DNA of 37,659 nucleotides. It comes from a virus. The translations under genes and the position numbers were made by a program. Below the pieces are notes generated by a model that saw only the letters and a program-made list of their open reading frames with translations, made no database searches and was not told where the DNA came from. Location of the stretch: IMG/VR virus record IMGVR_UViG_3300012668_000271; one strand, 5' to 3'. Positions 13,639 to 21,308 of this stretch are shown here, piece by piece; positions within the stretch are counted from its first letter, which is position 1, and every line of letters begins with the position of its first letter.

Positions 13639-14187
13639 TTATACCCCCAAATTGCTTAAGCGTGTACTTAACAAATTACGGATAGCCGTATCTTGCGTAA
13701 TAGCTTGAGCTTGAGCAAATTTAACTGCCAAGGTTGCATTCTGAGCTAGCATACCAGAGTAATAAGGATCACGATAAATTAAATTCATCGAGAAACCATC
13801 CTGATTAATATGCGTAATAGCCTGTTTACCTAAAACTGTGTTGTAATATACGTCATTCAAAGTACCAACGTTATTTGCAACACTATTTCTTGCTACAGGT
13901 GCTTCCGAACTTGTCAAAATACGGATATTAAATATTGATCCATATTCACTTGCCAAAGCAGATGCATTCGTAGGATAGTTCCATTGTGAAAGGAATCCTG
14001 CACCCACTAAAGAATCAAAATCGGACTGAAGTTCAGTCGAACTAAGCATAAAATATGCTGAACGAACTGGACCTGTTCCAAATCTATCCATGCCTTCAAT
14101 ACCAGACATGAATTTATAAGCATTGTTACTATCAAGAGTTGTAGCAACTAATGAGAAGTCTGAGACTCCTAAGTTAGTTGGGTTATA
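13639..14187 (-). CDS. major capsid protein, exon 3
   Basis: YNPTNLGVSDFSLVATTLD...LSSTELQSDF...EYGSIFNIRILTSSEAP fits the C-terminal two-thirds of HK97-fold capsid proteins. The exon start is proposed after the G at 14188, supported by a P10-like pairing of AUAAC with GUUAU. Confidence 0.75.
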   Translation of the reverse strand, partial: YNPTNLGVSDFSLVATTLDSNNAYKFMSGIEGMDRFGTGPVRSAYFMLSSTELQSDFDSLVGAGFLSQWNYPTNASALASEYGSIFNIRILTSSEAPVARNSVANNVGTLNDVYYNTVLGKQAITHINQDGFSMNLIYRDPYYSGMLAQNATLAVKFAQAQAITQDTAIRNLLSTRLSNLGV

Positions 14188-14201
14188 CATTCTATTACTT
14201 G

Positions 14202-14230
14202 TTGACTTAAACGCTTGATCTTGTTACAAT
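14202..14230 (+). promoter_or_regulatory. sigma70-like promoter TTGACT-17-TACAAT for the homing endonuclease
   Basis: TTGACT at 14202-14207, a 17-nt spacer, TACAAT at 14225-14230. The ATG follows 6 nt later at 14237 with no SD. The promoter lies entirely inside intron 2. Confidence 0.6.
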
Positions 14231-14236
14231 AATAAC

Positions 14237-15148
14237 ATGATCGATAAATACACTTTAGCTTACACAGCTGGTTACACCGATGGAGATGGATGTTTTCATA
14301 TAAGAAAAACAATCCGAAAATCTACTGGTATAGCCAAATATTCTTGTTCTTTCATCATCTCTTCTACAGATACTGATATTATTGAGTTCCTTGTAAAGAC
14401 TTTCCCAGGTATTCGACGCATAGTGCATAATGGAAAAAGATCTTCTATATGGAAACCTCAACATCATTTTGTGATTAGAGGAAAAAAATCCATTAAATTT
14501 GTTCAGCAAATTTTGCCATTTCTTATTGAAAAACGAGAAGAAGCTGAAATTTACTGCAAATTCATTAAATCTTTTTCTCGTGAAGAAAAAGAGATTCTGA
14601 TGAATCGACTTAAGGAAGTTAAAAATGAATGTAATTTGGTCAAAAAATCTCATAAGAATAATCTTCAAGAGTGTATCTTGACTTTGTGCCCTAGTGATTT
14701 GGATTTTGCTTATTTCGCAGGTTTTATAGATGCTGAATGTGCACTTGGTGTATTTAGGTACAACTCTAAAAATCGCGATAACTTTATTTACAAAATCCTT
14801 CTTCAATGTGGCAATACCAAACTTCCCATTTTTAAATGGCTTCTTGAGCGATTTGGAGGACAAGTTCATTTTGTAGAACGTCGTTCCAAAAACATTAATC
14901 ATCGAGATTTTTTGACTTACAGAATTTCCAGTAAATCTCTCGGTGAGTTGCTTCCAAGAATATTTCCTTATATCAAACACAAAAAAATTGTTTGTGTTGA
15001 ACTGATGAAATTTTATGAAACAACGACTCCATTGCAAGGAAACATAAGCAGAAATTCTCCAAAATTTAAAGAATTCTATGCTGATATACTCACTATGAGG
15101 GACACTATTTTTCATAAAGTTCATATTCTTAATCGTAAAGGTATTTAA
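14237..15148 (+). CDS. double-motif LAGLIDADG homing endonuclease
   Basis: Two LAGLIDADG motifs: LAYTAGYTDGDGCFHI and FAYFAGFIDAECALGV. 303 aa. Confidence 0.9.
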   Translation: MIDKYTLAYTAGYTDGDGCFHIRKTIRKSTGIAKYSCSFIISSTDTDIIEFLVKTFPGIRRIVHNGKRSSIWKPQHHFVIRGKKSIKFVQQILPFLIEKREEAEIYCKFIKSFSREEKEILMNRLKEVKNECNLVKKSHKNNLQECILTLCPSDLDFAYFAGFIDAECALGVFRYNSKNRDNFIYKILLQCGNTKLPIFKWLLERFGGQVHFVERRSKNINHRDFLTYRISSKSLGELLPRIFPYIKHKKIVCVELMKFYETTTPLQGNISRNSPKFKEFYADILTMRDTIFHKVHILNRKGI

Positions 15149-15337
15149 ACATTTAAGCGGGTGGTCATTTCTGCCACCTCTCATAGTTTCCTATGAGATT
15201 AGACTATCGCTTCACCTTTCGGTGTCTGACCGCTTTAGTCGTTCACGGTCCCTTTCGGGTTCCGCCTTGTTGTCTTCACCATGACGTGGTAAGAGTTCCA
15301 AGTCGATTAGGTCTGATTTTACAACGGCAATAACTCT

Positions 15338-15706
15338 ACCGTTGGATCCACCACCTGCGTTAATCTGAGAAGCTGCTGATACGATATAATCTCGTAAAAT
15401 CAAATCCTCTGCTTGACGCATGGCTACGGCAAGTCTTTCTGAAACCCAAGCGAGAACTCCCTCTTGGTCTTGCAAAATGACTTGTTCGTTGATTATGCAG
15501 CCAGTCTATAAGCATAATCTAGGATCATTTCGGCACTGGCAATGCAACCGAAAAACGCCATCTGAGCATCAATTATATCCCTTTGTGGTACCTGTGCAGG
15601 TGGATCAATACCCGCATTACCTAATTGTACAGTAGGTGGCTGTATCGCACGAGGGCGCATAAATCTGCAAGTAGTACCGCCATTAGCTGGCATTGATACT
15701 TTGTCA
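15338..15706 (-). CDS. major capsid protein, exon 2 (contains a 1-nt frame break near 15496-15507 as assembled)
   Basis: DKVSMPANGGTTCRFMRPRAIQPPTVQLGNAGIDPP...AFFG continues in another frame as ...QEGVLAWVSERLAVAMRQAEDLILRDYIVSAASQINAGGGSNG. The 5' boundary could instead be 15724. Confidence 0.7.
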
Positions 15707-15977
15707 CACACAGTAATGTAATTCCTTGTTGTTAAGGTACTTAAGTACCTATCCGATCATTTCTGTCGAATTCTCTATGTTTCCATAGAGTTCAGAGCAC
15801 CGCATCCACTTAATTAAGTGGTCTCTTCGCTTGCTACGTTCACGCTGCAAAGCTTTCGCCGGCTTGCGCCTTGTTGCCTTCAACATTACTTGGTCAGGGA
15901 TTCAAGTCCATCAGAAGAGATTTTACAACGACGAATATATTGCACAAAACATTTGTGCATGATATAGTTAAACTGCC
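15707..15977 (-). mobile_element. group I-like intron 1 of the capsid gene (ORF-less, about 253-271 nt)
   Basis: P1 pairing: exon CAACGAU (15984-15978) with GUCGUUG (15932-15926). Shares blocks with intron 2 (CGUUGUAAAAUC, UGAAGGCAACAAGGCG, CGUGAACG, CAGAAAUGA). Hairpins CUCUAUG-GAAA-CAUAGAG and GGUACUUAAGUACC. Confidence 0.75.
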
Positions 15978-16063
15978 ATCGTTGGGGTAGGAACATAAAG
16001 CATAGCTGGAGCTAAACTTTGTAGGATCATGGGACCCAGGTTCCCTGTAGTCGTAATAGACAT
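15978..16063 (-). CDS. major capsid protein, exon 1 (28 codons plus 2 nt)
   Basis: AAAGGAAT RBS, then ATG at 16063. Encodes MSITTTGNLGPMILQSLAPAMLYVPTPT. The unspliced frame stops 3 codons later. Confidence 0.7.
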
Positions 16064-16224: not shown

Positions 16225-16887
16225 ATGGCACCTAGAAAAACACATGGCATGTGTAAAACAAAAGAATATCAATGTTGGAGAGCATTTAAAAATAGATGTA
16301 TGAATGAAAAAAATGTTCAATTTAAAGATTATGGCGGTCGTGGAATAACTGTGAGTAATGAATGGTTAGAATTTGTGAACTTTTATTCTGACATGGGAAA
16401 TTGTCCTGATGGGTTTGAAATTGATCGTATCGATAATAATAAAGGATATTGCAAAAAAAATTGCAGATGGACTACTAAGAAAATAAATTCTAGGAATAGA
16501 AGATCCACAAAAAAACATAAAATTAATTCTGAAGAAATAGTCCAACAAGTTCTTTTAGAGAAGATTGGATGGACAAAAAATCAATTTAGATGGTTTAAAG
16601 ATCAATATGGCATTGATTGGATTTTAGAAAACTTCAAGAAAGGAACTTTGCCAGAAATAACTAATATACCTGTTGATAAAGATGAAATTATTGGAAAGAC
16701 AATGGGAAAATGGACAGTTCTAAAATTCGTTTCATATAAAAGATGTATAGGAAATACTTATTTATGTAGATGCCATTGTGGGCATGAAAAAGAAGTTAAC
16801 GGATATTATCTTAGATCTGGAAAAAGCACTCAATGCCGCAAATGTGCTTATCAAAAACAAGAGAATAAACCAAATCCAAAAAAATAA
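16225..16887 (+). CDS. free-standing HNH-like (IDRID...NCRW family) endonuclease-type protein
   Basis: KEYQCWRAFKNRC...YGGRGITV...FEIDRIDNNKGYCKKNCRWTT plus a C-terminal Cys cluster CRCHCG...CRKC. Opposite strand to the surrounding late genes. Confidence 0.65.
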   Translation: MAPRKTHGMCKTKEYQCWRAFKNRCMNEKNVQFKDYGGRGITVSNEWLEFVNFYSDMGNCPDGFEIDRIDNNKGYCKKNCRWTTKKINSRNRRSTKKHKINSEEIVQQVLLEKIGWTKNQFRWFKDQYGIDWILENFKKGTLPEITNIPVDKDEIIGKTMGKWTVLKFVSYKRCIGNTYLCRCHCGHEKEVNGYYLRSGKSTQCRKCAYQKQENKPNPKK

Positions 16888-19190: not shown

Positions 19191-21308
19191 TTATTGTTGT
19201 CCATTAGCTTGTTGTTGCATAGGCTGCATTGCTTGTCCTAGTATTTCTTGCAAAAACTTGTTAGATTCTGTCCTGCTTTCAACATCACGTTTTTCAAATT
19301 CTTCTTCCTGCATCATTTTTTGATTTTGAATATCTAATTGCAATTGACGATGATCTGTTTCTATTTCTCCAAATCTCTGAATATTTTCAAGTAATGATGT
19401 AAGAGCTGATTGTTTTTCTTTCAATGACATAGCTCTATTTCTTTCGATCATTGATAATCTTTCTTCATACAAGCCTAGATTAGATTCAGATCTTGAATGA
19501 TCTTCTCTTGCTCTAGCAATATTACTCATAGCTTTAGTCATCAGTTCTTGTAACTTAGCATTTTCAAAGGCATGTTGAATATTTTGACCTTCTGCTTGAA
19601 CGGCTTGTTGTTGCTGTTCTTGCTGCTGGAGGAACTTAATAGCTTCACCCTTACCTGTGATATTTAACTTAGGAATAATCATTGAAGGAGGGAATACTTC
19701 ACGACCAAATCTTTCATTAATTTCAAACATCTGTTGGGCTTGCAAATTCTGCTGAGTCGGAGTTAAATCAGATTCTTCAACAATCGTTTGAAATTTACAA
19801 AATACTTTACTATAAAAATAAGGCGTTGGCTCTTCACCAATGAGTAGTTTAACTTTCTCAGCATTCCAATTATTTAAAGCAATTTGAATAAGTCGTTCTC
19901 CGAGCAATTTATCAGATAAATCCCATTGATCAAAATACTTTTGGAAAACCATTAAGTTAGCAGCTTGTTTAATTAAAGCAGTAAGAGCAGATGTTTGTTT
20001 ATCATTCTGACCTGACCAATTCTCTAAATTAATCCCTGATGTTTGATAGATTAAATCAGCCATTTGTTGAGCTAAAGCAAGGTCACTTTCCGGAACAGCA
20101 GAAGGAATAATCTTCTGAATATCTGTCATCTCATAACCTTCATTAATGATGATATCCCAGCCTTGGCCTGATTTCTTTAGATTATCTTCATTAGCAACTG
20201 CACCACTCTTACGCATCCAACCTGCATTAACTGTAGCTGCTGCGATGTCATTATTTGTTATAATTTTGTAATTATATAAAAACTGAGGATCGCGCATAGT
20301 CCTAACGAGAGAGCGCACGCGTAAATCATGGTGATTAATGTGGGGTTCATAATTCCAAAAGTATGGAACAAAAGGGCATCCATCAAATCCAAGTGGGTTT
20401 TCTCCTTGAAACATAAGTTGATCATTTAAAACGACAGCTAATTTCCAACAAGGAACTTCAACAGTGATTTCTTCCATATCTGGAATATTATAAAGAATAG
20501 CTTCAAGATTTTCATCTCCACCAGAGAAATCAAAGAATTGATTTCTAGATCTACTATAAAGTCTTTTCTTTTTCCTTTTCCATTTATACCATACATATGA
20601 CAAGACCATTAAATCATTTTTGGCCATGTTATGATTTTCAGGAAGGAAATAGAAGTTACCATATCTTTGCGGTGAACCTGACATGGGTTTAATGTCTTTA
20701 AACTTATCAGGGAATCTATTTTCAGCTTCTTGTTTACTTATGTACTCTTGGCACCAAACAAATTGAGCATCTGACATATCAGGATTACGAAAATAAGGAT
20801 CAACAATGAAAGAATTATATTCCCATATTTTAACTTTAAGATCACCTTGAGCTTGATCATCTGAAGTATAATCTAAATAAGGCTGCATTAGAACCATTCC
20901 AGAGATAGCAGCTAATTCTTTTGCTTTAGACTTTTGTTCATGTATACAACCAGCATTGGCCACATTCGTAATTAATCTTGAATATTGATCAGTGGTATTA
21001 GTATCAGCACCTTCACAAGGCACATAATTAAAATTCTTTCTATGTTGTCTTTCATAACCTGTAATCATATTGACTGGTTGCTGAATCAAATTAAAATGAT
21101 ACTGTTGATATGAACTTTTTTGAGAGAAATTAAATTGACGATTTACATATTCTTGTGAGCCAGCATAGAAAAGAGTGTCAATATTACTTTGATTCCAACG
21201 TGCCGTTTCTAATGGCTGAAATTTAGCATATAAATTATCTAACCAATGTCTAATATTACCCTGATTTGGCTCTAAATTATTATTCCATGGTGCACTATAG
21301 AAAGAAAT
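19191..21308 (-). CDS. portal protein (705 aa if initiated at ATT 21308)
   Basis: Size and position after the large terminase gene. The N-terminal ...NIDTLFYAGSQ... region and the Gln-rich coiled C-terminus are typical of portal proteins. The ORF is open from 21317. The only start-like codon behind AGGAGG (21314-21319) is ATT at 21308-21306. Confidence 0.7.
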   Translation of the reverse strand: MSFYSAPWNNNLEPNQGNIRHWLDNLYAKFQPLETARWNQSNIDTLFYAGSQEYVNRQFNFSQKSSYQQYHFNLIQQPVNMITGYERQHRKNFNYVPCEGADTNTTDQYSRLITNVANAGCIHEQKSKAKELAAISGMVLMQPYLDYTSDDQAQGDLKVKIWEYNSFIVDPYFRNPDMSDAQFVWCQEYISKQEAENRFPDKFKDIKPMSGSPQRYGNFYFLPENHNMAKNDLMVLSYVWYKWKRKKKRLYSRSRNQFFDFSGGDENLEAILYNIPDMEEITVEVPCWKLAVVLNDQLMFQGENPLGFDGCPFVPYFWNYEPHINHHDLRVRSLVRTMRDPQFLYNYKIITNNDIAAATVNAGWMRKSGAVANEDNLKKSGQGWDIIINEGYEMTDIQKIIPSAVPESDLALAQQMADLIYQTSGINLENWSGQNDKQTSALTALIKQAANLMVFQKYFDQWDLSDKLLGERLIQIALNNWNAEKVKLLIGEEPTPYFYSKVFCKFQTIVEESDLTPTQQNLQAQQMFEINERFGREVFPPSMIIPKLNITGKGEAIKFLQQQEQQQQAVQAEGQNIQHAFENAKLQELMTKAMSNIARAREDHSRSESNLGLYEERLSMIERNRAMSLKEKQSALTSLLENIQRFGEIETDHRQLQLDIQNQKMMQEEEFEKRDVESRTESNKFLQEILGQAMQPMQQQANGQQ

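Follow-up and report, generated by a model that had tools for sequence, protein, structure and literature searches.

The IMG/VR virus record IMGVR_UViG_3300012668_000271 represents a phage genome, 37,659 nucleotides (nt) or about 37.7 kb long, and the whole of this stretch is referred to here as the window. It encodes a P22-like portal protein (19191-21089), a scaffold-like protein and, on the minus strand, a major capsid protein whose relatives are labelled N4-gp56 family by one source. Three inserts break the capsid gene, namely, two group I introns after codons 29 and 144 and a 41-nt mini-intron without a catalytic core after codon 88. The two group I introns follow nearly the same exon word, CCAACGRU, and the question addressed here is how related introns came to occupy two sites that share it. 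Searches of the window against a phage collection with blastn and tblastn gave no match. The parts of the capsid gene and the two accompanying endonuclease genes are as follows.

15978-16063, minus strand: capsid exon 1, codons 1-29 with the last codon partial; its 3' end, CAACGAU (15984-15978), is the 5' strand of the P1 helix of intron 1; defined from the sequence and the alignment to uninterrupted homologues.
15725-15977, minus strand: intron 1, a 253-nt group I intron without an open reading frame (ORF); covariance model score of 199.8 bits, pair counts, RNAalifold and a fold z of -3.5.
15547-15724, minus strand: capsid exon 2a, which starts with GAAU (forming P10 with AUUC of intron 1) and ends with UUUCGGU (15553-15547), which pairs with the guide of the mini-intron.
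15506-15546, minus strand: core-less mini-intron of 41 nt, recognised by the frame break relative to homologues and by 26 distinct variants at the same site.
15338-15505, minus strand: capsid exon 2b; its 3' end, CAACGGU (15344-15338), serves as the 5' strand of the P1 helix in intron 2.
14188-15337, minus strand: intron 2, a 1150-nt group I intron; covariance model score of 177.9 bits.
14237-15148, plus strand: gene for a double-motif LAGLIDADG endonuclease of 303 amino acids (aa), inside intron 2; Pfam LAGLIDADG_1, E = 7.7e-08.
13639-14187, minus strand: capsid exon 3, including the stop codon; P10 of intron 2 is formed between exon bases 2-6, AUAAC, and GUUAU.
16225-16887, plus strand: free-standing gene for an HNH-type endonuclease of 220 aa, antisense to the capsid gene; PHROG 374 (E = 1e-48) and PHROG 3377.

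Excision of 15977-15725 (253 nt), 15546-15506 (41 nt) and 15337-14188 (1150 nt) produces a 981-nt frame, and the resulting 326-aa product aligns end to end with uninterrupted homologues of 322-330 aa at 89-93% identity. Our search retrieved 233 longer capsid homologues, and the six that were inspected are uninterrupted proteins of 322-336 aa. Since the uninterrupted homologues and the restored frame set the splice junctions, the latter are independent of the P1 pairing. An earlier sequence-only reading of this DNA had treated everything between the two introns as a single exon 2. This has to be corrected, because the 41-nt frame-breaking insert divides it into exons 2a and 2b.

The inserts after codons 29 and 144 are homologous group I introns, predicted from their fold to be self-splicing. 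The two align with each other; a pattern derived from sequence common to both gave ten related loci, and a search with the capsid gave 80 more. The topology, read on eight sequences, comprises P1, P3, P4, P5/P5a, P6, P7, P3', P8, P7', P9 (with a GAAA loop), P9.1 and P9.2. The family has no P2, its J1/3 segment is UAAAA, and the guide lies directly before a conserved UAAAAUC. Across 41 pairs, with P7 written as a pseudoknot with P3, 96.9% of cells are paired, compared with 32-51% when the partners are slid, and 19 pairs show compensatory change. RNAalifold alone recovers the nested helices P3, P4, P5, P6, P8 and P9. A covariance model built from the family alignment finds exactly two matches in the window (199.8 bits for intron 1 and 177.9 bits for intron 2) and no third copy. 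The relatedness of the two ribozymes, which the sequence-only reading had claimed, is thus borne out. By contrast, the Rfam model Intron_gpI has no match in the window, neither at the gathering score nor at E up to 10. Because the fold is backed by covariation, this miss is taken to reflect a limit of the Rfam model rather than an absence of introns. Both introns end in G (15725 and 14188, respectively), and both have a P10, formed by GAAU and AUUC in intron 1 and by AUAAC and GUUAU in intron 2. The helices of the two introns are located as follows.

Intron 1, minus strand: P1 loop of 45 nt; P10 guide AUUC, 15936-15933; P1 guide, 15932-15926; P3, 15920-15914 with 15828-15822.
Intron 1, minus strand, continued: P7, 15837-15832 with 15799-15795; P8, 15821-15806; P9, 15790-15773 (GAAA loop); P9.1, 15770-15752; P9.2, 15749-15736.
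Intron 2, minus strand: P10 guide GUUAU, 15334-15330; P1 guide, 15328-15322; P3, 15316-15310 with 15231-15225; P7, 15240-15236 with 15206-15202.
Intron 2, minus strand, continued: P8, 15224-15213; P9, 15197-15180; P9.1, 15178-15160; P9.2 stem, 15157-15152 with 14211-14206, enclosing the endonuclease gene.

The P1 helices of both introns are real. All four exon and guide strings on which the sequence-only reading relied are found on the minus strand where it had placed them. Exon 1 ends with CCAACGAU (15985-15978), and the corresponding guide is GUCGUUG (15932-15926); the exon before intron 2 ends with CCAACGGU (15345-15338), and its guide is GCCGUUG (15328-15322). Each P1 comprises 7 base pairs (bp), including a terminal U·G wobble, and the leading C at position -8 is unpaired. 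The compensating change that had been pointed out, with A or G at exon position -2 mirrored by U or C in the guide, also holds, and relatives add further covariation. At codon 29, CAACCAU occurs with GUGGUUG (L004, L038) and GACCAU with GUGGUC (L033), and at codon 144, CAACAGU occurs with GCUGUUG (L044). P1 pairing was counted across the family by script, and among relatives covariation extends to four positions of P1 at the two sites. The flanks of the two window sites match at seven of eight bases from -8 to -1, but at only 3 of 16 further upstream and 5 of 24 downstream, in agreement with the claim that they are alike only across the bases that pair in P1.

A survey of homologous capsid genes for site occupancy, which the sequence-only reading had proposed, shows that one intron family occupies about 19 positions across capsid genes from related, uncultured phages. 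The family covariance model has 79 matches in the related loci and yields 15 positions with a P1 of 6-7 bp; sites of this kind lie after codons 10, 29, 32, 36, 69, 77 (two, 3 nt apart), 94, 98, 102, 115, 121, 122 and 144. Four more positions come from further sites (codons 61, 181 and 93 and the mini-intron sites). Each copy of the family carries a guide matched to its own exon, and the same architecture is repeated in dozens of independent contigs. About half of the 80 close capsid genes are uninterrupted, and the others contain up to about six intervening sequences (L163, L124). In the latter two loci, the capsid genes (L163:1700-5100 and L124:8200-10600) have about five full-size breaks each in addition to a mini-intron. 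Portal genes are also interrupted by this family (L123:7931-8095 and L194:7595-7752), and the portal-gene exon of L123 ends with CAACCU, near the capsid word. The intron at codon 144 is found even in capsids that are only 33-46% identical at the protein level, whereas that at codon 29 is confined to close relatives, suggesting that the codon-144 intron represents the older and wider lineage.

Guide-directed choice of sites is the best reading of the shared word and, judging from sequence comparison, a likely one. CCAACGRT is found at only two places in the 37.7-kb window, each of them at an intron. Given the capsid protein sequence, CAACGRU can be encoded at 5 of about 975 positions, and three of the five are occupied in nature, namely, codons 29, 61 and 144; the other two lie after nt 132 and nt 768 of the spliced gene. 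The codon-61 intron, present in L163, follows an exon ending with CCAACCAU and has the guide GUGGUUG. If other codon-29 introns are set aside, intron 1 has its nearest relatives among codon-144 introns, with 70-73% core identity. Other sets of sites also have P1 words in common: AACAGGU is shared by codons 93 and 98, ACAGGNU by codons 102 and 121 and a portal gene, and UUCGGU by codons 88 and 181. By three measures, the flanks 5' of 17 occupied sites resemble one another more than random 7-mers ending in T do (P = 0.027, 0.0014 and 6e-5); the first of these corresponds to three flank pairs matching at 6/7 or more, against 0.65 expected, and the last to overall similarity. The comparison was run on occupied alleles, and the window's own coding sequence is uninformative in this respect, since its unoccupied sites carry other synonymous codons. 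Here and below, the shuffle and Fisher statistics treat contigs as independent and are uncorrected for relatedness. To our knowledge, reverse splicing is the only known route to base-precise, guide-matched insertion.

Both window introns are accompanied by endonuclease genes. As the sequence-only reading had noted, only one of the two contains such a gene: intron 2 carries the LAGLIDADG gene, and intron 1 is ORF-less. The LAGLIDADG gene lies in the P9.2 loop, antisense to both the ribozyme and the capsid gene; its two motifs are visible in the translation, and the match to Pfam PF00961 (E = 7.7e-08) is above the curated cut-off. Homologues with 42-79% identity, likewise antisense, reside in the codon-144 introns of L001, L005, L006, L009 and L044. 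The HNH gene, also antisense, begins 162 nt upstream of the capsid start codon and about 250 nt from intron 1. Its homologues have a constant place, upstream of the capsid gene, and a constant orientation, and are found only in contigs with an intron at codon 10, 29 or 32, thus within the first 36 codons (L023, L038, L002/L047, L004 and L057). HNH genes co-occur with introns at these early codons (4/0 versus 2/67, Fisher p = 1.4e-5, with relatedness again uncorrected). The HNH gene is described here as a candidate collaborative-homing partner of ORF-less intron 1. Present-day spread between genomes is most likely driven by endonucleases: intron 2 would move through its own antisense LAGLIDADG enzyme and intron 1 through the neighbouring free-standing HNH enzyme. 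The sequence-only reading had favoured spread by reverse splicing rather than by endonuclease homing. Its first half is supported in part, in that the flanks and the five compatible positions point to guide-directed siting; its second half is unwarranted for present-day spread, because endonuclease genes accompany both introns.

The fullest account that we can give combines these elements. The codon-144 intron, which is old, widespread and equipped with its own endonuclease, would have seeded a copy at another place where the protein permits nearly the same exon word, with insertion at the new site proceeding via reverse splicing, a step that we infer. After insertion, the synonymous positions of the exon and the guide would have co-adapted, and endonucleases would account for the spread seen today. 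This sequence of events as a whole appears to us rather probable, though far from assured.

Several observations weigh against this account. The other comparison that the sequence-only reading had suggested is a phylogeny of the ribozyme cores. The two window introns, with guides that differ at a single base, have cores of only 64% identity and are not sisters, and introns at one capsid site do not form clades, the sites being polyphyletic in the core tree. Window intron 2 instead groups with codon-102 introns (98/95 support), which have an unrelated guide. The tree is poorly resolved and was not used to infer the direction of spread. In L163, three copies (codons 10, 61 and 144) do not differ in the first approximately 50 bases after the guide, but their guides differ. 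Thus, cores are exchanged or homogenised, and guides stay local and can change, a pattern that suggests homogenisation of cores within a genome. The motif is also rare where introns are absent: it occurs in 1 of 68 empty alleles at the first site and in 0 of 48 at the second, and common exon words of empty alleles include CCCACAAU and CUAAUGGA. In intron-bearing alleles, rare combinations of synonymous codons complete P1, whereas empty alleles (L011-L090, codons 29 and 144) vary widely. Since empty alleles rarely carry the motif, part of the likeness between the words arose after insertion or through co-converted flanks. Furthermore, a search of the ten largest ORFs of the window yielded no reverse transcriptase domain, so that a reverse-splicing route would need a host enzyme. 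Finally, whatever the route of insertion, only guide-matched sites would survive selection for splicing of an essential gene.

The last point leads to an alternative in which insertion takes place at the DNA level. A cut by an endonuclease (LAGLIDADG or HNH) or another break at the second capsid site would be followed by illegitimate recombination from an intron-bearing copy, and guide and exon would subsequently mutate to restore P1, making the shared word a by-product of later adaptation to the inherited guide. The presence of endonuclease genes with both introns is consistent with such a scenario, as are the tuning of synonymous exon positions to the guide at occupied sites, where empty alleles vary, and the close intron relatives found at sites with unrelated guides. 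Relaxed endonuclease specificity has also been named as an alternative route (Hausner review, PMC3984707). Nevertheless, we consider insertion of this kind unlikely. Around the insertion point, only 9 of 22 bases agree between the two sites, and downstream only 2 of 11 do; one LAGLIDADG enzyme would hardly accept both. Nor would illegitimate recombination be expected to insert an intron base-precisely after the pairing U, and the occupation of three of the five motif-compatible positions also speaks against it.

Seeding could also be dispensed with altogether if the ribozyme family simply favours certain P1 sequences (C/G and then A/G before U), so that the words converged by chance or function. 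Many sites do end with CGAU, GGAU, CGGU or AGGU, and with about 17 sites, a pair matching at 6/7 arises in roughly half of random sets. However, three pairs at 6/7 or more exceed the 0.65 expected (P = 0.027), the overall similarity gives P = 6e-5, a third site, at codon 61, has the same word and guide, and the nearest relatives of intron 1 outside its own site are codon-144 introns. Convergence seems slightly less plausible still than DNA-level insertion. The remaining explanation is that the inserts are not spliced, the locus being a capsid pseudogene, a source of separate polypeptides or a case of ribosome hopping. The failure of Rfam to find a group I intron even at E = 10 would be in line with this, but the heavy covariation in the group I fold, the exact frame and 89-93% identity to homologues restored by excision, and the recurrence of the architecture in dozens of independent contigs render it very improbable. 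Hopping over the mini-intron, moreover, would delete conserved residues, whereas splicing by the same rule (exon ending in U, insert ending in G) restores them at four sites. Guide-directed siting continues to be the reading that we prefer.

The 41 extra bases of the mini-intron (15546-15506) break the capsid frame between AQMAFFG and TGCIINEQ. The insert has a P1, in which its guide GCCGAAA (15534-15528) pairs with the exon word UUUCGGU, the exon ending in U with a U·G wobble at the junction. Directly 5' of the P1 guide lies a P10 guide, GCCAGU (15540-15535), which pairs with ACUGGC, the six bases that open exon 2b. The insert has a terminal G, and there is neither a catalytic core nor a recognisable P7. 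Among the related loci, 36 distinct mini-introns of 30-79 nt occur at four capsid positions, 26 of them at the site found in the window, and all obey the same rules. At this site, pairing in P1 amounts to 99.4%, two P1 positions covary, and one P10 pair is seen as all four Watson-Crick types without a mismatch, tracking the third base of a Thr codon. Mini-introns are present only in genes that also have a full-length sibling (14/0 versus 22/44, p = 2.5e-6 in the 80-locus sample, relatedness uncorrected), and 18 further loci bearing mini-introns all have family-model matches. Most likely, to judge from these regularities, the mini-intron is a core-less derivative that is spliced in trans by the core of a sibling. 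Natural trans-splicing of a core-less group I intron by a sibling core was not found described in the literature searched.

Other causes of the frame break were considered and set aside. Translational bypass of the T4 gene 60 type finds no stop codon after GGU, and a hop from GGU to GGC would skip the conserved Thr-Gly. A conserved Ile would likewise be lost by hopping at a second site of mini-introns, and removal of the inserts according to the U/G rule recovers the conserved sequence at four of four sites. An assembly artefact does not explain why the same element, with covariation, is found in many independent contigs. Within the P1 loop of intron 1, a stretch of 12 bases shows complementarity to the two ends of the mini-intron; this complementarity is limited to the window and, with permuted controls giving about 1 in 26, is attributed to chance.

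Two linked readings can be drawn from the above, namely, that the family moves by guide-directed reverse splicing into abundant late messenger RNAs and that the 41-nt insert is a non-autonomous element spliced in trans by a sibling core. We regard the pair as possible, though somewhat less likely than not. If the first of them is true, the capsid genes would be the first protein-coding, population-scale record of the long-hypothesised reverse-splicing route.

For group I introns, there was no direct experimental evidence of reverse splicing to new sites as of 2014, and the best circumstantial case comes from ribosomal DNA (rDNA), in which related introns at different sites have 4-6 guide-complementary bases in common (Bhattacharya et al. 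2005, PMC1299323; Hausner et al. 2014, PMC3984707). As in rDNA, homologous introns lie at heterologous sites of one gene, the likeness of the flanks is confined to the P1 bases, and the same inference is drawn. Unlike in rDNA, the host in the window is a protein-coding gene of a phage, so that codon degeneracy allows the compatible positions (five) to be counted; in addition, the window displays exon-guide co-adaptation and has endonuclease partners at both sites. The capsid gene and its relatives would represent a second, richer natural record of putative guide-directed spread, in a protein-coding gene. The strengths of this record are its approximately 19 positions, the sets of sites with common guide words, the limit that degeneracy places on compatible positions, and the empty and occupied alleles found side by side. 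It also makes the question of reverse splicing concrete, since integration at CCAACGRU and mapping of endonuclease cleavage become assayable.

Several sibling self-splicing introns in one phage gene are not without parallel: Landthaler and Shub reportedly described in 1999 that orf142 of Staphylococcus phage Twort contains three related group I introns. The family in the window differs in that it has neither P2 nor P7.1/P7.2 and is missed by Rfam, and relatives of the window have many more interruptions per capsid gene. Interruption of the major capsid gene by a self-splicing intron is likewise shared with cluster J mycobacteriophages, whose capsid genes contain group I introns (Pope et al. 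2013, PMC3706429). The phage group and the intron lineage are different there, and in the present case a whole population of capsid genes is colonised at many positions. Capsid introns are not described in the Bellas 2015 and 2020 cryoconite papers.

Collaborative homing, in which an ORF-less intron relies on an adjacent free-standing endonuclease, has precedents in two different phages (Hausner et al. 2014, PMC3984707). The arrangement in the window is similar in that ORF-less intron 1 lies near a free-standing HNH gene and both co-occur across contigs. It differs in that the HNH gene runs opposite to the late operon, in antisense orientation. For the mini-intron, the closest counterpart is provided by the small degenerate group I introns of fungal rDNA, which are 56-81 nt long and keep P1, P7 and P10 (Harris and Rogers 2011, PMC3160393). 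The 41-nt insert similarly keeps P1 and P10 but not the core. In contrast to the fungal introns, the phage mini-introns (30-79 nt) have a terminal G, interrupt a protein-coding gene, show no recognisable P7 and are found only beside full-length siblings.

These findings also bear on annotation. A widespread lineage of phage introns is invisible to Rfam, and standard annotation will mis-call the capsid genes of this phage group as fragments. The pairing of ORF-less introns with neighbouring HNH genes and the tolerance of capsid genes for core-less mini-introns similarly affect the calling and annotation of capsids in metagenomes.

Two minor observations concern the non-core parts of the family. 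The P1 loop is 45-47 nt long and contains a hairpin in codon-29 introns that co-occur with an HNH gene (window, 15933-15977; L002, L004 and L038); it measures 10 nt in the codon-29 intron of L033, which is without an HNH gene, and 9-12 nt in codon-144 introns. A GCAGCRUAA-like motif, often in a small hairpin, recurs in many mini-introns (L052, L167, L112, L073, L090 and L040), and some full-length copies have it in their P1 loop (L050 and L090).

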